A stretch of 64,000 nucleotides of DNA. Origin: Candidatus Omnitrophota bacterium (GTDB lineage Bacteria; Omnitrophota; Omnitrophia; Omnitrophales; Aquincolibacteriaceae). The stretch covers positions 30,898-94,897 of the forward strand of contig JAUYMS010000044.1 in the NCBI GenBank assembly GCA_030698625.1. Direction: 5' to 3'. Numbering within the stretch: position 1 is the first letter of the stretch; each line of letters begins with the position of its first letter. The notes under the pieces are model-generated. The model was not told the DNA's origin, did no database searches, and worked only from the letters and a program-made list of their open reading frames with translations. Below are positions 1,607 through 43,279 of this stretch, in pieces. The position numbers were made by a program, and so were the translations under genes.

Positions 1607-1777
1607 TTCTACGAGCCCGCTTGCCGGGAATAACTTGGCATACTATTTGTATATATGCGTCTGTATTTGATTTATACGGCGTTTCTTTCGGGAAAGGCTG
1701 GAAGAAGCCTACATTTTTGTAGTTTCTTACAGTTTTGCTGTATATAGACGAGAATCCGAAAGTGGGACTATGAAATT

Positions 1778-2500
1778 ATGCATACGCAATCAGAAGCCGG
1801 GTCAAAGTCATCGACCGATAGTGTTTCGTTGCTCTACGAGGTCAGCCGGGTTATCGCAACAAACCATTACCGCGATGATATCCTGCTGATGGTGGTTCAA
1901 CTGACGGCACAACTTACGGGCTCGAAGATCTGTTCCATGATGTTAATGAATGAAGCAAAGGATAAGCTCGAAATCAGGGCGACTCAGTGTTTGAGCGAGG
2001 CTTACCGCACTAAGCCGCCGATTCGAGTGGGGCAAAGTATCAGCGGAAGAGCGGTTTTATCCAAGAAGCCGATCGCGGTTTTGGATATAAGTCAGGACAA
2101 AGATTACCAATATCCTGAGATTGCAAAGGCTGAGGGAGTTTGTTCTTTAGCGGCTGTTCCGATGATCGCCAAAGATCACGTGATTGGGGTTTTGAACTGC
2201 TACACGTCGGAGCCGCATGTCTTCAGTGAGGAGGAGTTAAAGATTCTCTCGGGCGTGGCGAATCAAGCGGCTATGGCGGTTGAGAACACCCAATTGCTTG
2301 CAGAAAAAATTCAGATGTTTGAACAGTTGGAGGCGCGAAAGAGCGTCGATAACGCGAAGCGGATTTTAATGAAACAACAGGGTATCAGTGAAGATGCCGC
2401 CCATAAACTGCTTCAAAAGCAAAGCATGAACAAAAGGAAGACGCTTAAGGAAATTGCCGAAGCGATCATATTGTCGGCTGAAATAATTCGGCCGAATTAG
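1778..2500 (+). CDS. GAF-ANTAR RNA-binding antitermination regulator (NasT/NasR functional analogue)
   Basis: N-terminal GAF domain and a C-terminal ANTAR helix signature (AKRILMKQQGISEDAAHKLLQKQSMNKRKTLKEIAE). It lies immediately upstream of nirBD. Confidence 0.75.
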   Translation: MHTQSEAGSKSSTDSVSLLYEVSRVIATNHYRDDILLMVVQLTAQLTGSKICSMMLMNEAKDKLEIRATQCLSEAYRTKPPIRVGQSISGRAVLSKKPIAVLDISQDKDYQYPEIAKAEGVCSLAAVPMIAKDHVIGVLNCYTSEPHVFSEEELKILSGVANQAAMAVENTQLLAEKIQMFEQLEARKSVDNAKRILMKQQGISEDAAHKLLQKQSMNKRKTLKEIAEAIILSAEIIRPN

Positions 2501-2503
2501 ATC

Positions 2504-2529
2504 AGTCCCGGACAACGGTGTCCGGGACT
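2504..2529 (+). terminator. Perfect 11-bp-stem hairpin (AGTCCCGGACA-ACGG-TGTCCGGGACT) just after the GAF-ANTAR stop
   Basis: The inverted repeat is read directly from the sequence. It is followed by AAAAATTTAT, a weak U-tract. It is either the terminator of the regulator gene or the first ANTAR-target hairpin of the nirB leader. Confidence 0.45.
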
Positions 2530-2575
2530 AAAAATTTATAAAGCGGTCAAGATGGCCCGCGCGAGTCGAACAAAG

Positions 2576-2611
2576 GCGTTCAACTAAAAAGTTGAGCGCC
2601 TCTTTCAATTT
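2576..2611 (+). promoter_or_regulatory. nirB leader hairpin (9-bp stem, hexaloop UAAAAA) followed by a U-rich tract; candidate ANTAR-controlled intrinsic terminator
   Basis: GCGTTCAAC-TAAAAA-GTTGAGCGC then CTCTTTCAATTT, about 40 nt upstream of the nirB RBS (AAAGGAG). Confidence 0.4.
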
Positions 2612-2641
2612 ACGGGGCATTTAAAAGGAGATATTAAAACT

Positions 2642-5089
2642 ATGTCGGACAAAAAACATCTTGTGGTGGTTGGGAACGGAATGGCGGGGATGGCTTGCCT
2701 GAGCAATATTCTGAAGAGGCAGCCCAACTTCGTGGTTACGGTATTGAGTGAAGAGCCTTATTGCAACTATAACCGCATTCTCTTGTCTTCGGTCCTCTCC
2801 GGTGAAAAACCGGAAGAGGATATCTATATCAATACGGAAGAGTGGTACGAAAAAAATAATATTTGCCTAAGGCTCGGCACGAAAGCCGTGGACATTAACG
2901 CAAAGACACAGAACATCATCTGCCAGGACGGGTCTCTGGTGCATTACGACAAACTACTAATCGCGACCGGCAGTGACCCTTTTATTCCGCCGATCGACGG
3001 TGTGAAAAAGCGGGGGGTCTACACGTTCCGGAATCTTGCCGATACGCGCGCGATTCTTGAGCAGTGCCGGGCCAAGACGGGCCGTGCCGTTGTGATCGGC
3101 GGCGGACTGCTCGGGCTTGAAGCCGCGCGCGGCCTCTTGAACCAGGGGATGAAGGTCAGCGTCGTGCACATCATGGACCGGCTCATGGAAAGACAGGTCG
3201 ACGAAAAGGGCGGCTGGTTCCTTAAGCGGGAATTTGAAAAGATGGGGATCGATGTGCTCCTGAAGAGAAGCACGGCAAGAATCATGGGTGATAAGGACGT
3301 AGACGGCGTGCTCTTTAAGGACGGCGAAATCATCGGTGCGGACATGGTAGTTGTCGCCTGCGGCATTCGGCCAAATGTGGCCCTCGGAAAGAAAGCGGGC
3401 CTCCAGGTCAACCGCGGCATCGTGGTTAACGATTATATGGAGACGAATAATCCGGATATTTTTGCAGTGGGGGAATGTGTCGAGCACCGGGGCATGGTCT
3501 ACGGGCTCGTCGCTCCGCTGTGGGACCAGGGGAAGGTTCTTGCGGCGACCATTACGGGCGACAAGGGGCCCACCTATGAAGGTTCGGTTTTAGCGACAAA
3601 GTTAAAAGTGATGGGCATCGAGCTTTTTTCCGCCGGCGAGTTTATGCCGGAAGAACCCGAAAAAGAAGTGGTCGCCTACGAAGACCACGCCTTTGGGATT
3701 TATAAAAAGCTCGTGGTCAAAAATGAGCGGCTGGTCGGCGCTATTCTCATCGGGGACTCCTCCGACGCCAATCGGTTTCTCGATATGATTCGCAAGAACG
3801 AACGTGTTTCGGGGGACCGGCACCGGCTTCTTTTTGAAACCCCTCCAGCCGTGCCGGGTTCCCCCACAGACGTGATGTCGAAGCCCGACACCGAAACTAT
3901 TTGCGGTTGTATCGGGGTGAGTAAAGGACAAATCGTATCGGCCATTCGTGAGGACGGATGCCGCAGCGTCCAGGACATTAAGAAATGCACCAAGGCATCG
4001 ACCGGCTGCGGCACCTGTACGGGCCTGGTCGAGCAGATTCTCCGCGCGGTTGCCGGTTCAGAAGTCGAGGAAGTAAAAGAGAAAGTCGTTTGTGAATGCA
4101 TCCCTTTTCCCAAAGAAAAATTACGCAATATCATTAAAACGCAAAACCTCAAAAGCGTTCAGGACGTGCTCGAGGTTTATGGGAACGGAACAGGGTGCCT
4201 TGCCTGCAAGCCGGCACTTGGCTTCATTGTCGATGAGGTGTGGTGCGGCGACCACGAAGAACAGCGCTCTGCCCGATTTATCAATGACCGGGTGCATGCC
4301 AACATTCAACGTGACGGCACGTTTTCGGTGATCCCGCGAATGCGCGGCGGGGTGACGAGCCCGGCACAGCTTCGCAAGATTGCCGATGTCGCGGAGAAAT
4401 ACAAAGTTCCCATGGTGAAAGTCACGGGGAGTCAGCGCATCGACCTTCTGGGTGTCAAAAAAGAAGATCTTCCCAAAATGTGGGCCGATCTGGATATGAC
4501 GTCCGGGTACGCGTATGCCAAGGCCGTTCGTATGGTGAAGTCCTGCGTCGGTACGGATTTTTGCCGTTTCGGAACACAGAACTCCATTCAAACCGGTATC
4601 GATCTTGAAACTGCGCTCGAAGGGCTGCACACGCCCGCGAAAGTGAAATTGGGAGTTGTCGGCTGCCCCCGCAACTGTGCCGAGGCCACGGTCAAAGACA
4701 TCGGCCTCGTGGGGATCGAAGGCGGGTGGCAGGTTGTGATCGGGGGCGCGGCAGGAAAGACCGTGCGCGCGGCAGACATTCTGCTCGTCGTGGAGACCAA
4801 AGAACAGGCCTTCGAGGCGGCGTTTCTGTTTTTTCAGTATTACAGAGAGAACGGTGAGTATCTGGAAAGGACCTATGATTTTGTCGAGCGCTTGGGCCTG
4901 GAAAAGATTCGTCAGGAGACGATCCTTGCATCGGATGAAAAGAAAAGAGGGCTGCTCGAGCGCTTAAAAAAATCAAAGTCCAAAGTCGTTAACCCGTGGA
5001 ATGAGCACAAGAAACCGGTTCATCCCATGCAGTTCGATGATTTTGTTTTACCCAAGGACAAGGAAGCCTTGATTGGGAGTCCGTCATGA
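2642..5089 (+). CDS. nirB: Assimilatory NAD(P)H-nitrite reductase large subunit
   Basis: 815 aa. N-terminal FAD/NAD pyridine-nucleotide-disulfide oxidoreductase fold (VVVGNGMAG), BFD-like 2Fe-2S, and a sirohaem/4Fe-4S nitrite-sulfite reductase domain with CxxxC cysteine clusters. Strong RBS. Confidence 0.9.
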   Translation: MSDKKHLVVVGNGMAGMACLSNILKRQPNFVVTVLSEEPYCNYNRILLSSVLSGEKPEEDIYINTEEWYEKNNICLRLGTKAVDINAKTQNIICQDGSLVHYDKLLIATGSDPFIPPIDGVKKRGVYTFRNLADTRAILEQCRAKTGRAVVIGGGLLGLEAARGLLNQGMKVSVVHIMDRLMERQVDEKGGWFLKREFEKMGIDVLLKRSTARIMGDKDVDGVLFKDGEIIGADMVVVACGIRPNVALGKKAGLQVNRGIVVNDYMETNNPDIFAVGECVEHRGMVYGLVAPLWDQGKVLAATITGDKGPTYEGSVLATKLKVMGIELFSAGEFMPEEPEKEVVAYEDHAFGIYKKLVVKNERLVGAILIGDSSDANRFLDMIRKNERVSGDRHRLLFETPPAVPGSPTDVMSKPDTETICGCIGVSKGQIVSAIREDGCRSVQDIKKCTKASTGCGTCTGLVEQILRAVAGSEVEEVKEKVVCECIPFPKEKLRNIIKTQNLKSVQDVLEVYGNGTGCLACKPALGFIVDEVWCGDHEEQRSARFINDRVHANIQRDGTFSVIPRMRGGVTSPAQLRKIADVAEKYKVPMVKVTGSQRIDLLGVKKEDLPKMWADLDMTSGYAYAKAVRMVKSCVGTDFCRFGTQNSIQTGIDLETALEGLHTPAKVKLGVVGCPRNCAEATVKDIGLVGIEGGWQVVIGGAAGKTVRAADILLVVETKEQAFEAAFLFFQYYRENGEYLERTYDFVERLGLEKIRQETILASDEKKRGLLERLKKSKSKVVNPWNEHKKPVHPMQFDDFVLPKDKEALIGSPS

Positions 5090-5418
5090 ATACGACAGAA
5101 CAAACCAAGTGGTATTTGATTTCAGAGACGCATCTTTTTCCGGAGCGGGAGGGGAAGCGGGTTCATTTTAAGGACTATGATATCGCCGTCTTCAATCTGG
5201 GAAACGGCCGCTTTAGGGCTATTGACAATACTTGTCCCCATAAGCAGGGGCCGCTTGCCGATGGGATTGTTGCCGGCGAGAACGTTTTTTGTCCGCTTCA
5301 CGCGCTGAAGATCGATCTCGGGTCCGGCTGCGCCGTGGAAGCCAACGGAAAAGTGAGATCCTATCCGGTTCAAGTCTACAACGCAAAGGTCTACGTGGCC
5401 TTTGACGAGGGTGAGTGA
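5086..5418 (+). CDS. nirD: Nitrite reductase small subunit (Rieske-like)
   Basis: 110 aa with CPH...CPLH Rieske-type motifs. The start overlaps the nirB stop (ATGA). Confidence 0.85.
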   Translation: MNTTEQTKWYLISETHLFPEREGKRVHFKDYDIAVFNLGNGRFRAIDNTCPHKQGPLADGIVAGENVFCPLHALKIDLGSGCAVEANGKVRSYPVQVYNAKVYVAFDEGE

Positions 5419-7141
5419 TGAGAGAAGGGAAGGCCAGCGCGTGAATGTTTCTACCCAGGAATTTAATTTGATCGACCTGCTCGATGAGGGGGCCCTGCCG
5501 CTAAAAAACCGCATCGACACGGGCGGTTTTTATGCGCCGCGGGAGGCTCAACCGAAAGGGAATGCCTCGTCATTGATTCCCGAGGAACCTTTGAAAGAAG
5601 GCGAACAATACCGTTTTCACTTTAATATGGCCAGCTGCGTCGGCTGTAATTGTTGTGTGGTGGCGTGCAATGAGCAAAACGGTAATCCTGCGGATGTGAA
5701 TTGGAGACGGGTCGGCGAGATCGAAGGCGGTATCTATCCGGAGACAAAACGCTTTCATATTTCTATGGCGTGTAATCATTGCCTGGATCCGTCCTGTCTC
5801 ACGGGATGTCCCACGGATGCCTATATAAAATTGGATGATGGGATTGTTCAGCACCAAGCCGAGGAATGTATCGGATGCGGTTACTGCACGTGGAATTGTC
5901 CCTACGGCGTACCGCAATATAACCCCGAGCGAAATATCGTGACCAAATGCGACATGTGCCACGGCCGCCTTAAGGACGGAGAGATGCCGGCCTGCGTTGC
6001 GGCCTGCCCCGAGAGCGCCATCCGCATTGAAAAAGTAGACGTCAAAGAATGGCGCGAAAATCACCTGCAGGCCGATGCCCCGTTTGTGCCGGACTCCGGG
6101 ATGACCCTTTCGACGACACGTATCACTTTGCCCGCAGATGTCCCGATCGATATGATGAAAGGGAATCGCCATCGCATAGAACCCGAAAGGCCGCATACCT
6201 CTCTTATCGTTTTAACCACCTTAACCCAGTTGGCGATGGGCGGTTTCTTCACGCTGTGGCTCGGTGATCTTCTCTCGAAATTTGTCTCTCACTTTAATCC
6301 GATGAAGAGTTTTATGCCTTTCGGAGCGGCCGGGATGCTCGTGGTCACCGGTGTTGCGCTCCTTGCAGCCGTTTTTCACTTAGGCCGTCCGCTTCATGCT
6401 TATAAGGCGCTGAGGATGTGGAGGCGTTCCTGGTTATCGCGCGAAGTGCTTCTGTTTGCGGTCTTTTCGCATGTGGGCGCTCTTTACGCCGCTTTGCAGC
6501 TGGCCGTTTATTATTGGTCCTGGCCGATCCCCGAAGTCATCCTGTTTTTTCTGGGCGGGCTTGTCGTGCTGAGCGGATTTGCGGGGGTGTATGCCAGTGC
6601 CAAAATCTACCTTGTGCCGGCGCGGCCCGCGTGGAACACGATTCGAACGCCGCTTCGGTTCTTTCTTACGGGGTTTATCACCGGGCCGCTCTTCAGTCTC
6701 GTTGTTTACGCCTTCTACGTAAGGACCCAAACGCCTGATTATGTGAAAATGTATTTTCAGGCACCCGCGGTCACATTTTTACTGATTTCGATCGCGGCAG
6801 GCGCCGCCCAGCTTGTGGTCTTGCTCTCCCGGCTGTTTCATTTGCGTGAGTCCATCTCTGATGAGCTGTATGGTGCCTCGTTTCTTTTAATTCACCGGTT
6901 TAAACATTTATTTTTAACCCGATTGGCACTCCTGGTTCTCGGTGCCTTTCTTTTTCCGTTTCTTCTTATTTACGAGCTCGGCCTCGGGGGAGTATCGCAT
7001 ACCGGTTTTATCGGGCTGTCGGTCACCTCTTTTATGCTCGCTTTCCTCGGGGAATGGATCGGCCGCTACCTTTTCTTTGTCACGGTCGTCCCTAAAAATA
7101 TGCCGGGATCATTTTTTACTAAAAATGGCGGCGGTCATTAA
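5402..7141 (+). CDS. Fused 4Fe-4S dicluster ferredoxin (DmsB-like) / NrfD-PsrC-like polytopic membrane anchor; putative electron-donor subunit for the downstream nitrate reductase
   Basis: The N-terminal ~220 aa carry four Cys clusters (CVGCNCCVVAC, CNHCLDPSC, CIGCGYCTWNC, CDMCHGRLKDGEMPACVAAC). The C-terminal ~330 aa have about 8 predicted TM helices. The start is ambiguous: TTG 5402, GTG 5411 or GTG 5441. Confidence 0.65.
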   Translation: MTRVSDERREGQRVNVSTQEFNLIDLLDEGALPLKNRIDTGGFYAPREAQPKGNASSLIPEEPLKEGEQYRFHFNMASCVGCNCCVVACNEQNGNPADVNWRRVGEIEGGIYPETKRFHISMACNHCLDPSCLTGCPTDAYIKLDDGIVQHQAEECIGCGYCTWNCPYGVPQYNPERNIVTKCDMCHGRLKDGEMPACVAACPESAIRIEKVDVKEWRENHLQADAPFVPDSGMTLSTTRITLPADVPIDMMKGNRHRIEPERPHTSLIVLTTLTQLAMGGFFTLWLGDLLSKFVSHFNPMKSFMPFGAAGMLVVTGVALLAAVFHLGRPLHAYKALRMWRRSWLSREVLLFAVFSHVGALYAALQLAVYYWSWPIPEVILFFLGGLVVLSGFAGVYASAKIYLVPARPAWNTIRTPLRFFLTGFITGPLFSLVVYAFYVRTQTPDYVKMYFQAPAVTFLLISIAAGAAQLVVLLSRLFHLRESISDELYGASFLLIHRFKHLFLTRLALLVLGAFLFPFLLIYELGLGGVSHTGFIGLSVTSFMLAFLGEWIGRYLFFVTVVPKNMPGSFFTKNGGGH

Positions 7142-9364
7142 ATGAAAAAGGATTATTTCCAGGCACTCAAACAACGGCTGGGTATCGATACGCTTCAGGA
7201 AAAGTATGCCTATGATATCGATGAACAGTACGGTTTTATGTCCAAGTCCAAAATTCCGGATCGCTGGGTCGCGACCACTTGCGGTTATTGCTCGGTCGGC
7301 TGTGGTATGCATATCGGCGTAAAGGATGGTGCTGCCGTTAGTGTTCGCGGTGATGAGAAACATCCGGTCAATGAAGGGCGGCTCTGTCCAAAGGGCCTTG
7401 CCGAACACTATGCGATTGCGGCACCCAACCGCGCTTTGCATCCGTTACTCAAAGTGGACGGCAAGTTTCAAAAAATCAGTTGGCCCTCGGCCATTCATAC
7501 CCTGGTGTCCAGATTTCGCGAAATTCAAGCCAAGTATGGCGAGGATTCCCTGGGCGTTATTAGCACGGGCCAGCTCGTGACCGAGGAATTTTACGCCATG
7601 GGAAAACTCGTGCAACTCGGTTTTAAAACTAAAAATTTCGACGGCAATACCACCCTGTGTATGGCCAGCGCGGTCTCCGGTTATAAACGGTCTTTCGGGA
7701 GCGACGGCCCGCCGGGCGCTTACGAGGATTTGGAAAAGTCGGATCTGATTTTTCTGGTAGGGGCCAATATTGCCGACAATCATCCGATTCTTTGCTACCG
7801 CCTCGAAAAGAATAAGAAAAAGATTCTGATGGTTGCCGACCCTCGTGTCACAAAAACGGCCATGATGGCCGACGTGTTCCTTCCCGTGAAGCCTCGCACC
7901 GATATTGCATTGTTGAACGCAATGATGCATGTGTTGATCAAAGAGGGTTTGATTAACACGGACTATATCAAAAAGCACACGGTAGGCTTTGAAGAACTGA
8001 AAAAACACTTGGAGGCCTATTCGCCGCAGCGGGTGAGTAAGATCACAGGTTTACCGGTGGATCAAATTCGCCGCGCGGCTTTGCTTTACGGTCACGCCAA
8101 GGCACCCTTCATCGGATGGACCATGGGGGTTAATCACAGCACCCAAGGCGCTGAGACTGTGAACGTTATCTGTAATTTGGCGCTTCTGACCGGAAACGTC
8201 GGGCGGGTCGGCGCCTCGCCTTTTTCCATTACGGGGCAGTGCAATGCAATGGGGACTCGCGAGACCGGATTTACCTCGAGCATTCCCGGCTACCGCAAGT
8301 TTGAAAATCCCGACGACCGTAAAGAGATTTCAATGTTGTGGCAGGTTTCAGAGTCTGAGATTCCGGAGTCGAGAGGTCTTGCTTATCCCGACATTATCGA
8401 AGGCGTTCTCTCCAGGAAAATTCGAGGCCTCTGGATCATCGCAACCAACCCGCTCGTGTCGTTTCCTAACCAGGCTTACCTCCGAGAGGCCTTAGAGGGG
8501 CTTGATTTTCTTGTCGTCCAAGACGGGTTTCACCCCATCCCGACATCTGAGGTCGCCGACCTGGTCTTACCGGCCGCGATTTGGGGTGAAAAAGAGGGGA
8601 CCTTTACGAATTCAGAAAGGCGTGTCAGCAAAGCGAATCAAGCCGTCGCTCCGCAGGGCGAAGCGAAATCGGATTTTGATATCTTCTTAGCGCTCGCGAA
8701 AGAAATGGGTGTGGAGAAAAAGATTTTTCCGGGTTGGACAAAGCCGGAAGACGCATTTAATGAGTGGAAAAAAGTTTCAAGAGGCCGTTTATGCGATTAC
8801 TCAGGCATGACCTATCAGATGATCGAAGAGAAGGGCGGCATCCAGTGGCCCTTCGGGGAATCGAACGAAGCGCGAAATCCCGCAGAAACCAGCCGCCTTT
8901 ATGCGGACGGCCTGTTTCCGACAGAAAATAAAAAAGCCCGGCTTTGGTCTGTGGAGTGGCAGCCTCCCTCCGAACAGCCGGACGCGGAATTCCCATTCTG
9001 GCTGAACACCGGAAGAACCGTTGAACATTGGCATACGCGAACGAAAACAGGCCAGATCCCTATTCTCGATAAATTATCACCCGAAGCCTGGGTGGAGATG
9101 AATGCCCGCGATGCGAAAAAACTCGGATTCAGTCACGGTGATTACGTGGCCGTCATATCGCGGCGCGGTCGTATCGCCAAGATCATTTTAAGAGTGACCG
9201 AGACGGTTGCGCCCGGCCAGGTGTTTATTCCTTTTCATTTTGCGGAAGCGAATGCGAACAACTTAACGCTAAACGAATTTTGCCCGATCTCTCGCGAGCC
9301 CAATTACAAGCAGAGCGCGGTCCGTATCGGGAAATCAGAAATTCCGATTTTTGCCAAACACTGA
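7142..9364 (+). CDS. nasA: Assimilatory nitrate reductase catalytic subunit (Mo-bisPGD, NasA/NarB type), no Tat signal
   Basis: 740 aa. N-terminal 4Fe-4S motif CGYCSVGCGM, a molybdopterin oxidoreductase fold and a C-terminal MopB domain. No RR twin-arginine leader, so the enzyme is predicted cytoplasmic. ATG is immediately after the preceding stop. Confidence 0.85.
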   Translation: MKKDYFQALKQRLGIDTLQEKYAYDIDEQYGFMSKSKIPDRWVATTCGYCSVGCGMHIGVKDGAAVSVRGDEKHPVNEGRLCPKGLAEHYAIAAPNRALHPLLKVDGKFQKISWPSAIHTLVSRFREIQAKYGEDSLGVISTGQLVTEEFYAMGKLVQLGFKTKNFDGNTTLCMASAVSGYKRSFGSDGPPGAYEDLEKSDLIFLVGANIADNHPILCYRLEKNKKKILMVADPRVTKTAMMADVFLPVKPRTDIALLNAMMHVLIKEGLINTDYIKKHTVGFEELKKHLEAYSPQRVSKITGLPVDQIRRAALLYGHAKAPFIGWTMGVNHSTQGAETVNVICNLALLTGNVGRVGASPFSITGQCNAMGTRETGFTSSIPGYRKFENPDDRKEISMLWQVSESEIPESRGLAYPDIIEGVLSRKIRGLWIIATNPLVSFPNQAYLREALEGLDFLVVQDGFHPIPTSEVADLVLPAAIWGEKEGTFTNSERRVSKANQAVAPQGEAKSDFDIFLALAKEMGVEKKIFPGWTKPEDAFNEWKKVSRGRLCDYSGMTYQMIEEKGGIQWPFGESNEARNPAETSRLYADGLFPTENKKARLWSVEWQPPSEQPDAEFPFWLNTGRTVEHWHTRTKTGQIPILDKLSPEAWVEMNARDAKKLGFSHGDYVAVISRRGRIAKIILRVTETVAPGQVFIPFHFAEANANNLTLNEFCPISREPNYKQSAVRIGKSEIPIFAKH

Positions 9365-9379
9365 TGTAGGAGGCTAACC

Positions 9380-10708
9380 ATGGATGATAACAAAAAAAGC
9401 ATTTCTGTTTTAATTATGAATACGGTTGCATTCACCGTTTGCTTCGCATGTTGGATGACTTACAGTATTCTCATTGCGCATTTGGTGAGCCTGGGCGAAT
9501 TTGAGTGGAGCGCAACCCAGATCGGAGCGCTCATCGCGATCCCTGTTTTAACGGGTTCTCTGATGAGGCTTCCCCTCGGACTCCTGACGGACATCTTCGG
9601 AGGGCGCATTGTCTATTTTGTATTGATGCTGTTCGCGGCGGTCCCGATGTACTTTGTGGGCGAGGCAAAGAGCTATCAGGATTTTTGGATTGCCGGGCTT
9701 GGTTTTGGTGTCACCGGCGCTTCTTTTGCTGTCGGCATCGCCTATACCTCGGTTTGGTTTTCCAAGGAGCGGCAGGGGACCGCGCTTGGTATTTTCGGCG
9801 CGGGGAACGCGGGAGCAGCCTTAACGACTTTGGGGGCACCGATTCTCTTGAGGTGGCTTCCCGACTGGCGAATACTGCCCAAGATGTATGCCGCAGCCTT
9901 GGTCCTCACGGCGATTGTGTTTTGGTTTCTAACGCATACCAAAAAGAGCGTCTCGGGGGAGCGCCTCTCCATCGCCCAAAGGCTTGCGCCTCTCCGCAAA
10001 GTCAGAGTCTGGCGATTCGGGCTCTACTACGTTCTGGTTTTTGGCGCCTTCGTTGCCCTAACCGGATGGCTTCCTGTTTATTACATCAATGTTTATAAAC
10101 TCGATCTTGTTAAGGTGGGGCTCCTTTCGAGTATTTTTGTCTTACCTTCGGGGCTGGTTCGAGCCTTGGGCGGCTGGCTGTCGGATAAATTCGGCGCCCG
10201 AAAAATAATGTATTGGGTGCTCGGCACCTGCCTCACAGCGAGCTCTATTTTGATACTCCCGCCCACGCTGTTGAATGTGGCTGTGTTTACGGGGCTGGTT
10301 TTCATGATCGGAATCGCGATGGGCATCGGCAAAGCTGCGGTGTATAAGTTTATTCCGGATTATTTCCCTACCGAGATTGGGATTGTCGGCGGGCTCGTGG
10401 GTGTGCTCGGCGGGCTCGGCGGATTTTTCTGCCCGAAACTTTTCGGAATCTTCTTGGAAGGGACCGGGGTCTGGACGACCTGCTGGGTTTTCCTTGCCGC
10501 TCTTTCAGCCGTGTGCCTGTTCTGGCTGCGGCATACGGTGCGCCAAATTGATAAGGATGAGATCCTTAATTTTGCAGAAGCCATTGAGGGTCTTGAAAAC
10601 GAGGAAGTTCTTCTTACCTTCAAAAATCAAAGATTCGTTGTCCGCAGGGCAGCCGACGTGCTGGTGTCCCGAGTGAAAAATTTGGAAGAAATCAATTTTC
10701 AGAGTTAA
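9380..10708 (+). CDS. narK: MFS nitrate/nitrite transporter (NarK/NrtP family)
   Basis: 442 aa with 12 TM helices and Gly-rich nitrate/nitrite porter signature motifs. Strong RBS AGGAGG. Confidence 0.8.
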   Translation: MDDNKKSISVLIMNTVAFTVCFACWMTYSILIAHLVSLGEFEWSATQIGALIAIPVLTGSLMRLPLGLLTDIFGGRIVYFVLMLFAAVPMYFVGEAKSYQDFWIAGLGFGVTGASFAVGIAYTSVWFSKERQGTALGIFGAGNAGAALTTLGAPILLRWLPDWRILPKMYAAALVLTAIVFWFLTHTKKSVSGERLSIAQRLAPLRKVRVWRFGLYYVLVFGAFVALTGWLPVYYINVYKLDLVKVGLLSSIFVLPSGLVRALGGWLSDKFGARKIMYWVLGTCLTASSILILPPTLLNVAVFTGLVFMIGIAMGIGKAAVYKFIPDYFPTEIGIVGGLVGVLGGLGGFFCPKLFGIFLEGTGVWTTCWVFLAALSAVCLFWLRHTVRQIDKDEILNFAEAIEGLENEEVLLTFKNQRFVVRRAADVLVSRVKNLEEINFQS

Positions 10709-22145: not shown

Positions 22146-25100
22146 ATGAATCCCCCAAAGAATTCTAACAGGGGTCTTTATGACCCTCGCTACGAGCACG
22201 ATGCGTGCGGCGTAGGGTTTCTCGCCAATATCAAAGGCAAAAAGTCGCATGAGATCATCGAGCAGGCCATCACGGTCCTGCTCAACCTCGATCATCGCGG
22301 GGCGTGTGGTTGTGAAGCCGACACCGGCGACGGCGCCGGAATCCTCATTCAAAAGCCTCATTCCTTTTTTCACAAAGTTTGCGCCGGCACGTCCGTAAAA
22401 ATCCCCGACAATGAAGAAGATTACGGCGTTGGGATGGTCTTTCTCACTCCCAAGGCAAAGGACCGCCAAGCCGCCGAAAAAACATTCGAAGCTATTGTGC
22501 GCGAAGAAGGGCAGGCATTTCTCGGCTGGCGTGACGTGCCGACGGATAATTCCAGTTTGGGGCCGACCGCCAGATCCAAAGAACCTTTTGTCCGCCAGAT
22601 CTTTATCGGCCGCAACCCGGCTCTGAAGGATGCGCTGGCGTTTGAGCGCAAACTCTATGTCATCAGACGCCGCGCCGAAAACGCGCTGCGCGGTCCGGAC
22701 ACATCTGCCGGCGGAGAATATTTTTATGTCTCGAGTCTATCGCAGAGGACGCTTGTCTACAAAGGGATGCTCCTCACGAAGCAGGTGAAGAATTTTTATC
22801 CGGATCTTAACGATCCCGAGATGAAAAGCGCCCTCGCTTTGGTGCACTCCCGGTTCAGCACGAATACTTTTCCTAACTGGGACCGGGCGCAGCCGTTGCG
22901 CTATATCTGTCATAACGGCGAAATCAACACCCTTCGCGGCAACGTGAACTGGATGCACGCCCGGCAGGCCCTGTGCGAAACGCCGCTCTTCGGAGACGAC
23001 ATCAAAAAGCTCCTTCCCATTATTGATGAGGACGGAAGCGATTCATCTATGTTTGACAACTGTCTCGAGTTCCTGACCCTCTCGGGCCGTTCTCTGCCGC
23101 ATGCCGTCATGATGATGATCCCCGAGCCCTGGAGCCGGCACGAAAGTATGAGCGACGACAAGAAGGCCTTCTATGAATACCACAGTTGCATGATGGAGCC
23201 CTGGGACGGCCCCGCCTCGATTGCGTTTACCGACGGCGTGCAAATCGGTGCTGTCCTTGACCGAAACGGTTTGCGGCCTTCACGCTATTACATTACTAAA
23301 GATGATATGGTGATCATGGCTTCCGAAGTGGGCGTCTTGGACGTGCCGCCGGAGCGTGTTCTCAAAAAAGGAAGGCTCGAGCCCGGCCGCATGTTTTTGG
23401 TGGACACCCGTGAAGGAAGAATTATATCGGACGAAGAAATTAAAACGAAGATCGCCGCCGAACAGCCGTATCGCAAATGGCTTAATGAAAACATCATCGA
23501 CCTTCAGGAGCTGCCGGAAGCGCCGCATGTCCACGGGCCGGATCACAAGACCGTCCTTCTGAGGCAAAAGGCCTTTGGGTATACCTTCGAAGACCTCAGG
23601 GTCCTGATGGCGCCGATGGCGCAGGTCGGCGTGGAGGCCGTCGGTTCGATGGGGAATGACACGCCGCTTGCGGCGCTTTCCAACCAATCGCAGCCGCTCT
23701 TCAGTTATTTTAAACAGCTCTTCGCTCAGGTGACAAATCCCCCCATTGATTGCATTCGAGAAGAGATTATCACTTCGACCGTGACGACGGTGGGCTCCGA
23801 GGGCAACCTCCTTAATCCGCGGAGCGCAAACGCGCGGCAAATTAAGCTGACAAGCCCTGTCCTGACCAATGAAGAGTTCGAAAAGCTCCGGCATGTGGAT
23901 CACAAGTATTTTAAAGCGATCACTCTGCCCATCCTCTATGACCCGTCTTTACGCGGAGCCGGTCTCGAGAAGGCGCTGACAAAGCTATACCAGTTGGCGG
24001 ACCGAGCCGTTCGAAACGGGCATAACCTGATCATCCTTTCAGACCGCGGCATCGAAAAGAAAAAGGCCCCAATCCCGTCACTGCTTGCGGTTTCGGGTTT
24101 GCATCACCATCTTATTCGCGAGGGAACGCGAACGGAAGTTGCCATTATCCTGGAGTCGGGGGAACCCCGTGAGGTCCATCACTTTGCCGTGCTCGTCGGA
24201 TACGGCGCGAGCGCCGTCAATCCGTATTTGGCGTTTGAGACCCTCGACGATCTTATCCGGCAGAAGCTGCTTACGGGCATCGATCACAAGACGGCCGTGA
24301 AGAATTTTGCAAAGGCGGTCGCTAAGGGTGTCGTTAAGACGATGTCGAAGATGGGTATTTCCACGGTTCAGAGCTATTGCGGGGCGCAAATCTTCGAGGC
24401 CGTGGGGATTAATCGCGCAGTGATCGACAAATATTTCCGATGGACATCTTCGCGGGTTGAGGGAATCGGCATGGATGAAATTGCCGAGGAAGTTTTTCTG
24501 CGTCACAAAGAGGCTTTTCCGAGCCGCCCGAGGGCCGCGACGGCTTTGGATTCAGGCGGGCAATACCAGTGGCGCAAAGACGGTGAATATCATATGTTCA
24601 ATCCCGAGACCGTCCATCAGCTCCAAACCGCACTGCGGAACAATAGTTATGAAGTCTTTCAGAAATACGCCAAGTCGGTCAACGAACAATCTAAGAACTA
24701 CTGCACACTCAGAGGGTTGTTGGAGTTCAAATTCGAGTCGCGTAAACCCGTCCCGATCGAAGAGGTCGAACCCGTTTCCGAGATCGTAAAGCGTTTTAAG
24801 ACAGGGGCGATGTCGTACGGCTCGATCAGCAAAGAGGCACACGAAGCCCTTGCGATTGCGATGAACCGCATCGGCGGTAAGAGCAATACGGGAGAGGGCG
24901 GCGAGGACCCCGCGCGTTACACACCGGAAGCCAACGGGGATTCGAAGAATAGCGCCATCAAACAGGTCGCCTCGGGGCGCTTCGGCGTGACCAGTCTTTA
25001 TCTGACGCAAGCCAAAGAGCTGCAGATCAAGATGGCCCAAGGGGCCAAGCCGGGAGAGGGCGGACAATTGCCGGGCACAAAGGTCTATCCGTGGATTGCC

Positions 25101-26750
25101 AAGGTCCGAAGCACAACCGCGGGGGTCGGCCTTATCTCACCGCCGCCGCATCACGACATTTATTCTATTGAAGATCTCGCCCAACTCATCCACGACTTAA
25201 AGAATGCCAATCACCACGCCAGGATCAGCGTCAAACTCGTTGCCGAAGTCGGCGTCGGAACCATTGCTGCGGGTGTCTCGAAGGCGCATGCCGATGTCGT
25301 TTTGATAAGCGGCTATGACGGCGGTACGGGCGCGTCACCGCAGTCGAGCATTAAGCACGCGGGAATTCCGTGGGAGCTGGGCCTGGCGGATACGCATCAA
25401 ACCCTGGTGTTGAATAATTTGAGAAGCCGCATTGCAGTCGAAACCGACGGTCAGCTGAAGACGGGCCGCGATGTCGTGGTTGCGGCTTTGCTGGGCGCCG
25501 AAGAATTCGGATTCGCGACGGCCCCGCTCGTGGGCTTAGGCTGCATTATGATGCGGGTTTGTCATCTGAATACCTGCCCCGTGGGTGTGGCCACGCAGAA
25601 TCCGGAACTGCGTAAGAAGTTCACCGGAGACCCCGCGCATGTTGTCAATTTCATGAACTTCATTGCCCAGCAGGTCCGTGAGCTCATGGCGCAGCTCGGC
25701 TTTCGCACTATTAATGAAATGATTGGGCGGACAGATGCGTTAGAGGCGAACAAGGCCGTCGATCACTGGAAGGCAAAGGGACTCGATTTTTCAAAGATCC
25801 TATTCCGGCCCGAAGTTTCCGAGGATGTGGGGCGGTATTGCCAGATCCCGCAGGATCACGGGCTCGATAAGGCCTTGGATAACACCACACTTCTTGCGCT
25901 CTGTGAACCGGCCCTGGCCCGCGGTGAAAAAGTGAACGCTACCGTTCTGATTAAAAACACGAACCGCGTTGTGGGGACGATTCTTGGCAGTGAGCTGACG
26001 AGGCGCTATGGGGCCGAAGGACTTCCTGACGATACCATTCACCTGAAATTCAACGGCTCGGCAGGGCAGAGTTTTGGGGCCTTTGTGCCGAGGGGCATTA
26101 CCCTGGAACTCGAAGGCGATGCGAACGACTACTTTGGTAAAGGACTCGGTGCCGGAAAACTTATCGTGTACCCTCCGAAAGCCGCTACATTTGTACCGGA
26201 AGACAATATCCTGATCGGTAACGTCGCGTTTTACGGAGCGACGGGGGGGCGCGCCTATATCCGCGGTCTCGCAGGCGAAAGATTCTGTGTGCGCAATAGC
26301 GGTGTTCAAACGGTTGTTGAAGGAATCGGTGATCACGGCTGCGAATACATGACCGGCGGCAGGGTTGTCATTCTGGGCGCGACGGGACGCAATTTTGCGG
26401 CCGGGATGTCGGGCGGGATTGCCTATGTGTTGGACGTCGACGGTACTTTCCCGAGCCGCTGCAACGTGCAGATGGTCGGGCTCGAAAAGCTGGAAATCGC
26501 GGGTGAAATCGATAATGTCCGTACTTTGATCGAAGAGCACGCAAAATATACGGACAGCAAACGGGCCAAGCAGATTCTTGATCTGTGGGAAGATATGGTC
26601 CCGAAATTCGTCAAGGTCATTCCGCATGACTACAAGCGCATGCTCGAAGCGATCGAGGGCATGAAGGACGCGGGCCTCGACGAAGAAGAGGCGATCATGA
26701 CGGCGTTTGAGGAAAATGCCAGTAACCTGGCGCGGGTCGGCGGCAATTAA
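22146..26750 (+). CDS. gltB: Glutamate synthase (GOGAT) large subunit
   Basis: 1534 aa. N-terminal Ntn amidotransferase beginning CGVGF after the leader, a central domain, the FMN/3Fe-4S domain and the C-terminal GXGXG domain. Confidence 0.95.
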
Positions 26751-26752
26751 TT

Positions 26753-28225
26753 GTGGGAAATCCTACCGGATTTATTGAGATTGATCGGGAACTTCCGGCA
26801 GATCGCGCTCCCAAGGAGCGGATTCGCGACTGGAATGAATTTCATGATCACATGCACGAAGAGAAGCTCCAAGAGCAGGGAGCGCGCTGCATGGACTGCG
26901 GCATACCGTTCTGCCACACGGGGAATCTGGTGGCGGGTATGGCTTCGGGTTGCCCCATCAACAACCTCATTCCGGAGTGGAACGATTTAGTTTACCGGGG
27001 CCTTTGGCGCGAAGCGCTCGAACGCCTCCATAAGACCAATAATTTCCCGGAATTCACGGGGCGTGTTTGCCCGGCTCCTTGCGAAGGCTCGTGCGTGTTG
27101 GGGATCAGCGAACCGCCGGTCACCATTAAGAACATTGAAGCGGCCATCATCGACAAGGGTTTTCTCGAAGGCTGGGTCAAACCCGAACCGCCCGAGAAGC
27201 GCACGGGCAAGCATGTGGGCGTTGTTGGTTCCGGGCCTGCGGGGTTGGCGGCCGCCGATCAGCTCAACAAAGAGGGCCATGAAGTTACGGTCTATGAGCG
27301 CGCCGACCGCATCGGCGGGCTGCTCATGTACGGCATTCCGAATATGAAGTTGGATAAGAAAGTCGTGCAGCGGCGCATTGACTTGATGGCGGCCGAGGGC
27401 GTGAAGTTTGTCACGAACACCGAAGTGGGCAAAGACCTCCCGGCTGCAAAATTGCTCAAAGATTTTGATGCCGTAATTTTGGCGGGTGGAGCCACGAAGC
27501 CGCGCGACCTGAAAATTCCGGGCCGCGAGCTCAACGGCATTCACTTCGCGATGGAATTCTTGCACGCCAACACGAAGACCCTTTTGGACGGAAGGCCGAC
27601 AGAGAATTACATTACGGCTAAAGACAAGCACGTACTCGTCATCGGCGGCGGAGACACCGGTACCGACTGTGTCGGCACCTCGATGCGCCACGGCTGCCGA
27701 AGCCTGACGCAGCTTGAGATTCTGCCCAAGCCGCCGGACGAAAGGGCCGCGAACAATCCGTGGCCTGAATGGCCCAAGGTGTACCTTCTTGATTATGGTC
27801 AGCAGGAGGCCAAGGCCGTTTTTGGCGATGATCCGCGGGCCTACTTGACGACGGCCAAGGAATTTATCGGCGATGAGAACGGCCAAGTGCGGGCCATTCG
27901 CACGGTCAAGATTGAGTGGCAGAAAGATGAAAATGGCCGATTCACCCCGAAAGATGTACCCGGAACGGAAAAAGAAATTCCGGCCGACCTCGTGCTCTTA
28001 GCGATGGGTTTTTTGGGGCCCGAAGATACCATCTTGGACGGCTTGGGAGTGGAGCGCGACGCCCGCTCGAACGCGAAGGCTGAGCCCGGCCTCTATACGA
28101 CAAACATCGAAGGGGTTTTTGCGGCAGGCGACATGCGTCGCGGGCAAAGCCTTGTGGTTTGGGCGATTCAAGAGGGCCGGGCAGCCGCAGCTGCCGTTGA
28201 TAAGTACCTGATGATGACGAAGTAA
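26753..28225 (+). CDS. gltD: Glutamate synthase small subunit (NADPH, FAD, Fe-S)
   Basis: 490 aa. Cys clusters CMDCGIPFC and CPAPCEGSC, and two dinucleotide-binding folds GVVGSGPAG and [12 protein letters not shown] start 2 nt after the gltB stop. Confidence 0.9.
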
Positions 28226-42253: not shown

Positions 42254-42367
42254 CAACCGGTTTCTGCGCAGATCCTTCTTTCTAAGGAAGCGCCATTCGT
42301 GTCTGTCACACGAACTAATACGACCATCATTAAAAACACAACAGGCAAAAGACAAGGCAGGTGCACG

Positions 42368-43279
42368 ATGAGACTTCACGGGCTTGGGATCACGCTCATA
42401 ATATTTATGCTTCTAATGGGGCTATCTCCCGCGCAGTTGCCGGCCGGGCAACAGGAAGGCGCGGCGGTCATGACCGTGTTCGGCGACGCCGTGAAAGCGG
42501 AATACGATGACGCCGGCAGGCTTACTTCGGCCGAGGATGCGCTCGGGAACCGTACGCAGTATCGATATGACGAGCAAGGCAGGGTAATCGCCGTGACCGA
42601 TCCTATGGGCGCGACCTCGCGCATGGCCTATGATGATGAGGGCCGAATGATCGCCGCAGAAGATGCGTCCGGGAGCCGCTGGAAGTGGACCTATGACGAG
42701 AAGGGGCGCATTACGTCTTCGGCCGATCCCACCGGGCAGAGCACGCTCACATTCTACGATGATGCTAACCGCAAAATAACGATTACGGATGCGGCGGGCG
42801 CGTCTACGACTTATGAATACGATAGGGCAGGACGCATGGTGGCCGTAATCGATGCTACGGGGCGCACCACGCGGACAAGCTATGATGCCGCAGGCCGCGT
42901 GACGAGCGTGACGCATCCAGACGGAAAACGCACCGACGTTACTTACGATGCGGCAGGTCGCGTGACGGAAGTGCGGGACCTCGAAGGCCGTGCGATGAGC
43001 TATGAGTACGATGCAGCAGGTCGTGTGCAGAGCATGGCGGATGCCGGCGGCGCTACGATCGCATGGGAATACGACAAGGCCGGGCGGGTTGCGGGCATGA
43101 AAGACGCACAAGGCCGGGCCCTCAATACTGAATACGATGCCGCGGGCCGGATGCTTGCGAGCGAAGATGCCGAAGGCCATAGAATGACATACGAATACGG
43201 CAAGGACGGGCAGCTTGAAGCCGTTGTTGATACCGAAGGTAAGCGAATAAGCTTGAGGGCGGGGGACGGGCAATCATGA
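42368..43279 (+). CDS. Short secreted YD-repeat (RHS-repeat) protein
   Basis: Signal peptide (MRLHGLGITLIIFMLLMGLSPA), then about 12 tandem 21-aa YD repeats (xYxYDxxGRxxxxxDxxG). No RHS core or toxin domain. Confidence 0.8.
   Translation: MRLHGLGITLIIFMLLMGLSPAQLPAGQQEGAAVMTVFGDAVKAEYDDAGRLTSAEDALGNRTQYRYDEQGRVIAVTDPMGATSRMAYDDEGRMIAAEDASGSRWKWTYDEKGRITSSADPTGQSTLTFYDDANRKITITDAAGASTTYEYDRAGRMVAVIDATGRTTRTSYDAAGRVTSVTHPDGKRTDVTYDAAGRVTEVRDLEGRAMSYEYDAAGRVQSMADAGGATIAWEYDKAGRVAGMKDAQGRALNTEYDAAGRMLASEDAEGHRMTYEYGKDGQLEAVVDTEGKRISLRAGDGQS
42470..43250 (+). repeat. Tandem 63-bp coding repeats (YD repeats)
   Basis: Periodic TACGATGCCGCAGGCCGCGTGACG-like units. They generate the spurious antisense ORFs 42422..43273 and 43000..43647. 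Confidence 0.7.

Follow-up and report, generated by a model that had tools for sequence, protein, structure and literature searches.

A Nas-type nitrate reductase subunit paired with a fused ferredoxin–DmsC-type membrane anchor: a candidate cytoplasm-facing quinol:nitrate oxidoreductase in Omnitrophota and other bacteria

Prokaryotic nitrate reductases are divided in textbooks into quinol-linked respiratory enzymes (Nar and Nap) and soluble assimilatory enzymes (Nas and NarB) that receive their electrons from reduced nicotinamide adenine dinucleotide (NADH) or ferredoxin. What, then, is the function of a Nas-type catalytic subunit that appears to sit on a quinol anchor of the DmsC type, with the quinol site predicted on the cytoplasmic side? 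This question is raised by a gene cluster of a Candidatus Omnitrophota bacterium (assembly GCA_030698625.1). The DNA analyzed, hereafter the window, is 64,000 nt in length and covers positions 30,898–94,897 of contig JAUYMS010000044.1, forward strand. The nitrate cluster lies at 1.6–10.7 kb of the window and encodes, all on the plus strand, a GAF-ANTAR regulator, NirB, NirD, a fusion of a ferredoxin domain with a membrane anchor, a catalytic subunit carrying a molybdenum bis(pyranopterin guanine dinucleotide) cofactor (Mo-bisPGD), and a NarK-like transporter, in this order (Table 1). We consider it probable that the fusion protein and the catalytic subunit form a two-polypeptide, three-module menaquinol:nitrate oxidoreductase, which faces the cytoplasm, feeds NirBD and is built like the sulfite-oxidizing SoeABC. 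That nitrate is the substrate, that a quinol (and which quinone) is the donor, that electrons flow in this direction and that the role is mainly assimilatory are all points that we infer from sequence.

An earlier sequence-only reading of this DNA had described a cytoplasmic, signal-less catalytic subunit in a nirBD-narK setting, paired with an unusual fusion that might draw electrons from the quinone pool. The setting was borne out when the translated open reading frames (ORFs) were searched with Pfam and NCBIfam models, with nirB and nirD upstream of the catalytic gene and a gene of the NarK family of the major facilitator superfamily (MFS) downstream. The TAA of the fusion gene abuts the ATG at 7142 of the catalytic subunit gene, which suggests that the two genes are translationally coupled. 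The start of the fusion gene had to be revised: the TTG at 5402 given before is only that of the maximal ORF, and the likely start is the GTG at 5441, giving a protein of 566 residues. This GTG is the start in the NCBI annotation of a 100% identical protein of 566 residues (P0001) from a Candidatus Omnitrophota metagenome-assembled genome (MAG); the N-termini of homologues align there, and the Shine-Dalgarno-like stretch GAAGGGAAGG precedes it.

The fusion protein consists of an Fe-S domain and a membrane domain, as had been proposed. Within the ORF at 5402–7141, a Pfam match to Fer4_11 (E 2e-19) is followed by one to DmsC (PF04976), and eight transmembrane helices are found both by alignment-averaged hydropathy and in an AlphaFold2 model of the protein (predicted local distance difference test score, pLDDT, 84; predicted template modelling score, pTM, 0.84). 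The best NCBIfam model for the Fe-S part is DmsB (TIGR02951), at 155 bits against an equivalog cut-off of 214, and the NarH model scores only 45 bits. The cysteines fall into four groups (66/69/72/76, 111/114/119/123, 143/146/149/153 and 170/173/185/189). Since all 16 are invariant in an alignment of 66 homologues, the domain should bind four [4Fe-4S] clusters. Its modelled structure matches FdnH, ArrB and PsrB in a Foldseek search (template modelling score 0.76, normalized to the length of PsrB). A conserved linker, residues 214–252, leads from this domain to the anchor. In front of the domain, residues 1–55 (5441–5605) contain a conserved LPLKNR..GYY.P..LIPxEPL stretch, modelled with a pLDDT of 49–65 and missing from the P0109 lineage.

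The sequence-only reading had called the anchor NrfD/PsrC-type, and this holds at the level of the fold but not at that of sequence. The anchor matches PF04976 with 69.9 bits (cut-off 22.3; E 2e-18 to 3e-19) over model positions 7–273 of 275, which makes it a DmsC/YnfH-type protein, and there is no match to NrfD (PF03916) even at E ≤ 10. In Foldseek searches it resembles ActC (6lod_C, 8k9e_C and 6f0k_C; E 2.5e-5 to 1e-4), ActF and PsrC (2vpw_C; E 6e-3); these relatives came from the fold search, and a sequence search of the PDB with the fusion protein matched the Fe-S part alone. A permease-type membrane domain was considered and rejected on the strength of the DmsC match and the NrfD-like fold; together with the invariant quinol-site residues described below, these mark the membrane part as an electron-transfer anchor. 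The NCBI name of P0001, 'DmsC/YnfH family molybdoenzyme membrane anchor subunit', covers the anchor part alone, and the JGI names of P0002, P0018, P0048 and others are 'formate dehydrogenase iron-sulfur subunit' or 'DMSO reductase iron-sulfur subunit'; both sets of names hide the nitrate context of the fusion.

On which side of the membrane, then, do the Fe-S domain and the catalytic subunit lie? In the loops of the fusion protein, lysine and arginine together number 15.2 on average on the side of the Fe-S domain and 3.8 on the opposite side, and the bias has the same direction in all 66 homologues. It is the reverse of that in E. coli DmsC, which has 4 such residues on the DmsB-facing (periplasmic) side and 7 on the other. 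By inspection, neither the fusion protein nor the catalytic subunit has a signal for twin-arginine translocation (Tat) or Sec export. The catalytic subunit has 46 polar residues before its first Fe-S cluster, with a maximum 12-residue hydropathy of -0.19, compared with 1.6–2.0 for the Tat peptides of E. coli NapA and DmsA and of two plasmid-borne NapA proteins. No Tat signal was found among 78 orthologues of the catalytic subunit, and none has a signal-like hydrophobic core; values for the N-terminal extension range from -0.2 to 1.2 in maximum 12-residue hydropathy and from 8 to 17 in charged residues. The N-termini of these orthologues were taken by motif-anchored extraction; longest-ORF starts over-extend in GC-rich genomes and give a spurious 'RR'. 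Owing to the positive-inside charge bias and the lack of export signals, the Fe-S domain is predicted to be cytoplasmic together with the catalytic subunit, and the anchor to be inverted relative to DmsC, in agreement with the signal-less, cytoplasmic enzyme described before. A cytoplasmic catalytic subunit would also make sense of the NarK importer encoded next to it.

The N-terminal extension of the catalytic subunit (residues 1–46; 7142–7279) is itself conserved, as a polar segment of 40–48 residues with the motif M-x-L-[KR]-R-x-L-G-L-D...Y-A-Y, in which the basic pair is present in 57 of the 78 orthologues. It may be a remnant Tat peptide or a chaperone-binding peptide like that of NarG. 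The Nas protein of Deinococcus shares the ...PDRWV... end of this extension.

In a BLAST alignment of the anchor with E. coli DmsC (E 5e-9), His313, Glu335, Ser330 and Ser333 of the fusion protein align with DmsC His65, Glu87, Ser82 and Ser85, and all four are invariant in the 66 homologues (codons of His313 and Glu335 at 6377–6379 and 6443–6445 of the window). These four DmsC residues constitute the quinol site described for both DmsC and SoeC; replacement of His65 in DmsC blocks quinol oxidation, and Glu87 is important for quinol binding according to mutational studies (Calisto and Pereira, PMC8076601). Since SoeABC faces the cytoplasm, the same authors argue for an inverted SoeC whose quinone site is on the N-side. 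In the eighth transmembrane helix of the fusion protein, Glu538 and Arg542 are likewise invariant in the 66 homologues; they correspond to DmsC Glu267 and Arg271, which are part of a putative ion pathway (PMC8076601).

The catalytic subunit has Cys47, Cys50, Cys54 and Cys82 as ligands of the cluster FS0 and Cys173 (7658–7660) as molybdenum ligand within TLCMASAV. The FS0 cysteines and TLCMASAV are identical across 12 family members and common to the NasA and NapA references. The Cys-Met pair (CMAS) of the ligand motif is that of Nap and Nas, as against the Cys/Sec-His of formate dehydrogenases (Fdh). Scores with NCBIfam models were 596 bits for Fdh-alpha TIGR01591 (cut-off 666), 549 for NasC NF047855 (1100), 488 for NasA_Halo NF041323 (1000), and 446 and 429 for two NapA models (904 and 930). 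A search of annotated plasmids found assimilatory nitrate reductases as the best matches (33–41% identity), followed by FdhF and then NapA. In a neighbour-joining tree with 200 bootstraps, the fusion-linked catalytic subunits form a clade of their own (81–100%) within the Cys-Met group, outside the proteobacterial NasA clade (93%) and the NapA clade (100%). At 25 alignment columns that separate Nas from Nap, the family agrees with Nas at 19 and with Nap at 1; at 10 columns that split Nap plus Nas from Fdh, it agrees with the nitrate reductases at 8 and with Fdh at 1. The tree and the columns place the subunit apart from periplasmic Nap, as the assimilatory-type label given to it earlier implied, and no nap accessory genes of the NapB, NapC or NapD type were found in the cluster by Pfam, NCBIfam or locus comparison.

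The fusion had also been called unusual, and here the sequence-only reading has to be corrected. A protein database search returned more than 100 full-length homologues with 48–82% identity, and a scan of species-representative genomes with the fusion protein gave at least 588 candidate loci. The gene-context counts refer to the best 80 of these. In 79 of the 80 the fusion gene is followed immediately by the catalytic gene, and in the remaining one the contig ends 28 nt past the fusion gene. A NirB-like gene is present in 52 and a NarK-like gene in 55, one or the other in 66; about 14 loci have neither, yet keep the pair. Nearly all loci combine the pair with nirBD rather than with NrfA or NirS/NirK. 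When metagenomes were scanned with the catalytic subunit, the fusion gene was found to adjoin every orthologue of at least 47% identity with enough flanking sequence (about 30 loci), and none of the loci with a relative of 33% identity or less has it. A search of a 50%-identity library with the anchor domain alone finds 650 clusters at E ≤ 1e-10, some of them fused and others stand-alone. In the slot between nirD and nasA, classical nas clusters hold a gene for a flavin adenine dinucleotide (FAD) reductase, or else their NasA has its own CysJ or C-terminal donor domain; the fused anchor occupies the slot of the FAD reductase. No ferredoxin, flavodoxin or NADH module was found in or beside the catalytic gene, and the DmsBC-like fusion is its neighbour in the loci just counted, so that the partner does differ from the donors of NarB and NasAC, as had been said.

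The hosts of the best 80 loci are mostly Acidobacteriota; the others are Omnitrophota, a chlamydial MAG, Turneriella, a spirochaete MAG, Dormiibacterota and Polyangiales. Taken together, the gene pair occurs in hundreds of species, above all in soil Acidobacteriota, and also in Omnitrophota, Leptospirota, Myxococcota, Dormiibacterota and chlamydial and Hydrogenedentota MAGs; going by a published operon description discussed below, it probably occurs in Planctomycetota as well. Some individual loci deserve mention. In the metagenome contig VAPF01078204.1 (L131), where the catalytic subunit is 47% and the fusion 35% identical, the order is reversed to NirD, catalytic subunit, fusion. Two loci of the P0109 lineage (L095 and L096) have an operon of fusion, catalytic subunit, NirB, NirD, MoaA, MobA and MFS transporter, with molybdenum cofactor genes embedded. 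A locus labelled 'uncultured Bifidobacterium sp.' (L050, CAZOAZ010000040.1) has an Acidobacteria-like cluster of fusion, catalytic subunit, NirBD and NarK and is probably mis-binned. The catalytic subunit of a Dormiibacterota locus (L016) groups with one of Acidobacteriaceae at 100% bootstrap, which suggests lateral transfer.

On this basis we propose the following mechanism. Nitrate would be imported through NarK. Menaquinol would be oxidized at a site formed by His313, Glu335, Ser330 and Ser333; given the predicted inversion of the anchor relative to DmsC, this site should face the cytoplasm. Electrons would then pass through the four [4Fe-4S] clusters of the ferredoxin domain to FS0 of the catalytic subunit and reach the Cys173-ligated Mo-bisPGD, where nitrate would be reduced to nitrite; NirBD, with NAD(P)H, would reduce the nitrite to ammonium. 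The transfer of electrons from menaquinol (about -74 mV) to the nitrate/nitrite couple (about +420 mV) is strongly exergonic. Because the quinol would give off its protons on the side where nitrate reduction takes them up, this step would be electroneutral unless the anchor translocates protons. A precedent for quinol-dependent assimilation exists in Mycobacterium tuberculosis, in which the quinol-dependent NarGHI is used together with NirBD for this purpose.

The closest known systems are SoeABC in architecture and the Nas enzymes in catalysis. As is predicted for the present enzyme, SoeABC of Allochromatium vinosum, Aquifex aeolicus and Ruegeria has a Mo-bisPGD subunit that faces the cytoplasm and lacks a Tat signal, a subunit with four [4Fe-4S] clusters and a DmsC-like anchor of eight transmembrane helices, for which an inverted orientation and an N-side quinone site are predicted; the quinone-site residues of SoeC, His65, Glu87, Ser82 and Ser85 (PMC8076601), are kept in the protein studied here. 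Different from the present system, Soe oxidizes sulfite and reduces quinone, so that electrons flow in the opposite direction, and SoeB and SoeC are separate proteins rather than fused; the catalytic subunit here is of the Nas type and lies in a nirBD-narK cluster, in a comparison made with SoeABC by description (PMC8076601) only. The neighboring genes speak for nitrate as substrate rather than sulfite. A plasmid search for SoeBC-like relatives with the whole fusion returned ordinary DmsB plus DmsC pairs and one unrelated molybdoenzyme cluster, and with the anchor alone two weak matches.

With NasA, NasC and NarB the catalytic subunit shares the Mo-bisPGD subunit of the monomeric type, its cytoplasmic location (here predicted), the N-terminal [4Fe-4S] cluster, the Cys-Met motif, most of the Nas-specific residues counted above, and a context of nirBD, transporter and ANTAR regulator. 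The known enzymes, however, are soluble and receive electrons from ferredoxin or flavodoxin (NarB and haloarchaeal NasA) or from NADH via an FAD subunit, NirB/NasG, a fused CysJ or a 2Fe-2S domain, and the present subunit stands in a separate clade, has 33–42% identity to the Nas references and does not reach the NasC and NasA cut-offs. DmsABC and YnfFGH, of the complex iron-sulfur molybdoenzyme (CISM) family, have the same three parts, namely an A subunit with Mo-bisPGD and FS0, a four-cluster B subunit and, as C, a heme-free quinol anchor of eight transmembrane helices, including the conserved menaquinol-site His and Glu. Unlike here, DmsAB is exported by Tat to the periplasmic face of DmsC and B and C are not fused; the inverted charge bias and the lack of a Tat signal set the present proteins apart, and their A subunit belongs to the Nas/Nap/Fdh branch, with 25% identity to DmsA. 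NarGHI is similar to the enzyme proposed here in its quinol dependence, its cytoplasmic active site and its need for NarK. In contrast, NarG belongs to another Mo-bisPGD branch with an Asp ligand, and NarI is a di-heme cytochrome b that oxidizes quinol on the periplasmic side (a redox loop), whereas the anchor here is a heme-free DmsC-type protein with a predicted cytoplasm-side site.

Regulatory elements bear on the physiological role. The leader of nirB folds with -54.9 kcal/mol (z = -6.8 against shuffled sequences) and has hairpins at 2504–2529 and at 2574–2601, the latter followed by a U-rich tract; this second hairpin gives a terminator-like match and is conserved in a related locus (L001). 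It looks like an ANTAR-controlled attenuator and is a candidate for one, although the leader matches no Rfam family nor the canonical, closely spaced dual-hexaloop ANTAR motif. The first hairpin can be drawn with a hexaloop AACGGU. Relatives of the GAF-ANTAR gene adjoin the cluster in eight related loci (L001, L003, L013, L025, L109, L118, L133 and L134). The sigma-54-type pattern TGGCAY-N5-TTGYW has a single match in the window, where 0.16 would be expected by chance and 14 of 100 shuffles have at least one. In three related loci of other lineages (L004, at about 6959; L078, about 6779; L122, about 2129) the pattern directly precedes the fusion gene. In 1.36 Mb of related loci there are five plus-strand matches, four of which were counted at no more than 400 nt before a cluster gene; a match in L011 is inside the fusion gene and probably due to chance. 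The genes gltB and gltD for the large and small subunits of glutamate synthase (GOGAT) are located at 22146–28225, 12 kb downstream of the nitrate cluster. The ANTAR regulator, the leader terminator, the sigma-54-type elements and the GOGAT genes point to nitrogen-controlled assimilation; the MoaA and MobA genes in the operon of the P0109 lineage count in favor as well.

Several points weigh against the menaquinol-driven, mainly assimilatory enzyme proposed here. The catalytic subunit scores under every curated NCBIfam equivalog cut-off, the deep nodes of the tree have 44–72% support, and its placement within Nas is suggestive rather than settled, because cyanobacterial NarB, Bacillus NasC and Klebsiella NasA were not among the references used for the tree and the signature columns. 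How far the last cluster lies from the proposed quinol site is assumed from homology with PsrBC and DmsBC, and no quinone-biosynthesis or NADH-dehydrogenase genes were found in the window. In the full-text literature, we found no biochemical or structural study of this enzyme type, no account of quinol-dependent, HOQNO-sensitive nitrate reduction by membranes for it, and no review naming it; papers on Acididesulfobacillus DNRA, mitochondrial evolution and methylmercury proved to have no bearing on it. The sole earlier mention found is one descriptive sentence on Lacipirellula parvula PX69T (Dedysh et al. 2020, PMC6995999), the one cultured carrier that the literature found mentions, which says nothing of orientation, quinol site, distribution or biochemistry; there the operon is listed under anaerobic respiration, with the catalytic subunit called NapA, and the strain was positive for dissimilatory nitrate reduction in an API 20NE strip test. 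Judging from the published description, it is probably the same operon.

The last point leads to the alternative that survives best, which we regard as possible, at a low probability: the quinol:nitrate chemistry is the same, and its role is mainly dissimilatory. Electrons would run from NADH through complex I and quinone to nitrate as a sink, and NirBD would detoxify or ferment nitrite, as in the NarG-NirB pair of E. coli, which would make the cluster a compact module for nitrate ammonification in the cytoplasm. Quinol-linked nitrate reduction is, after all, the hallmark of respiratory enzymes, NarK-type transporters are able to export nitrite too, the L. parvula record agrees with such a role, and the putative ion-pathway residues Glu538 and Arg542 are kept without exception. 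On the other hand, an ANTAR regulator, a leader terminator and sigma-54-like promoters typify nitrogen-controlled nas operons, not respiratory ones controlled by FNR or NarL; the catalytic subunit carries Nas-type signature residues; the partner in nearly all loci is NirBD and not a respiratory nitrite reductase; and a cytoplasm-side quinol site combined with nitrate reduction would by itself generate no proton gradient. Even so, the assimilatory label may be incomplete, because L. parvula scored positive for dissimilatory nitrate reduction, and since a quinol-linked enzyme allows energy to be conserved by complex I upstream of it, a dual assimilatory and dissimilatory role is plausible.

A further proposal, which we hold to be doubtful, is that the inverted anchor pumps protons outward via Glu538 and Arg542, using the drop of about 0.5 V between menaquinol and nitrate, in which case assimilation would double as energy-conserving respiration. 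If true, prokaryotic nitrate reductases would comprise a fourth type in bioenergetic terms, in addition to Nar, Nap and soluble Nas. Acidobacteriota, Planctomycetota, Omnitrophota and others would then possess a compact, Nar-independent route of nitrate ammonification, which gene surveys at present score as plain nasA/narB.

It is unlikely that the fusion is a mere tether or Fe-S wire, with a soluble donor (NADH via NirB/NirD, or ferredoxin) serving the catalytic subunit and the quinone pool uninvolved. In favor of such an arrangement, nirB and nirD are adjacent in most loci, quinone genes are missing from the window, and Paracoccus NasC does receive its electrons through the NirD-like NasG in the NasB-NasG-NasC system. 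However, a passive tether is hard to reconcile with a domain of eight transmembrane helices in which the four quinol-site residues never vary and which is 48–82% identical across phyla; soluble Nas enzymes function without any anchor, and about 14 of the 80 loci retain the pair although nirB and narK are both missing from their vicinity.

Very improbable is another substrate, such as formate, chlorate, selenate or an S- or N-oxide, with the nitrate context a coincidence. Fdh-alpha is the highest-scoring NCBIfam model for the catalytic subunit, the top sequence matches in the PDB are formate dehydrogenases, and a JGI name given to the fusion says the same. But the Fdh-alpha score stays under its cut-off, the ligand motif is Cys-Met rather than Cys/Sec-His, nitrate-reductase residues prevail over Fdh ones at the ten columns that tell them apart, and the linkage to nirBD and narK extends across phyla. 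A formate dehydrogenase identity was rejected on account of the Cys-Met motif and the gene context. Scarcely credible, finally, is a periplasmic Nap-like complex with a DmsBC-type quinol dehydrogenase, exported by a cryptic or atypical Tat signal (KR/RR at residues 4–5 of the catalytic subunit): the extension is of Tat-signal length and mostly has the basic pair, but it has no hydrophobic core and many charges, a signal-less Fe-S domain is fused N-terminally to the anchor on its K/R-rich side in every homologue, NapB, NapC and NapD are missing, Nap residues are nearly so, and a nitrate importer is encoded alongside, so that a Nap with a cryptic Tat signal was rejected on its lack of a hydrophobic core and the inverted charge bias.

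What would follow from a quinol-driven, Nas-type enzyme? The pair of a Nas-type subunit and a ferredoxin–DmsC-type fusion is widespread, uncharacterized and noticed in passing once (PMC6995999). If it is driven by quinol, nitrate assimilation in its hosts would draw on the quinone pool and spare NAD(P)H and ferredoxin, with a possible use as an electron sink at low oxygen, and metagenomic calls that equate nasA/narB with soluble, assimilatory enzymes would need revision. If the predicted orientation is true, the anchor would be the second natural inverted NrfD/DmsC-type anchor after SoeABC and would be useful for testing proton translocation by such anchors.

Table 1. Features of the nitrate cluster, in positions of the window
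Feature	Position	Strand	Evidence or remark
Sigma-54-type -24/-12 promoter-like element TGGCAT-N5-TTGTA	1636..1651	+	127 nt upstream of GAF-ANTAR gene
GAF-ANTAR regulator, RNA-binding antiterminator type	1778..2500	+	Pfam GAF_2 E 4e-21, ANTAR E 1e-18
nirB leader, two strong hairpins, candidate attenuator	2501..2641	+	RNA fold
nirB, NAD(P)H nitrite reductase large subunit	2642..5089	+	TIGR02374, 910 bits (cut-off 578)
nirD, Rieske-type small subunit	5086..5418	+	TIGR02378, 73.5 bits (cut-off 74.65); Pfam Rieske, Rieske_2
Fused electron-transfer/anchor protein 'BC', 566 aa	5441..7141	+	Identity to P0001, homologue starts
Four-cluster ferredoxin domain (predicted), fusion aa 56–213	5606..6079	+	16 Cys, four CxxCxxCxxxC-type groups
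DmsC-type anchor with eight transmembrane helices, fusion aa 253–547	6197..7081	+	PF04976
Mo-bisPGD catalytic subunit, 740 aa	7142..9364	+	Pfam Molybdop_Fe4S4, Molybdopterin, Molydop_binding
NarK-like MFS nitrate/nitrite transporter	9380..10708	+	TIGR00886, 200 bits (below cut-off 311.7); MFS_1 E 4e-42

Rfam and tRNA scans of the window gave no matches. Outside the nitrate cluster, many two-component genes are found at 12.6–18 kb and 43.8–46.4 kb of the window, a fragment of an RHS-repeat protein lies at 42299–43279, and a CHASE2-adenylate/guanylate cyclase gene is followed by a gene for a CHAT-domain protein at 56174–60558.

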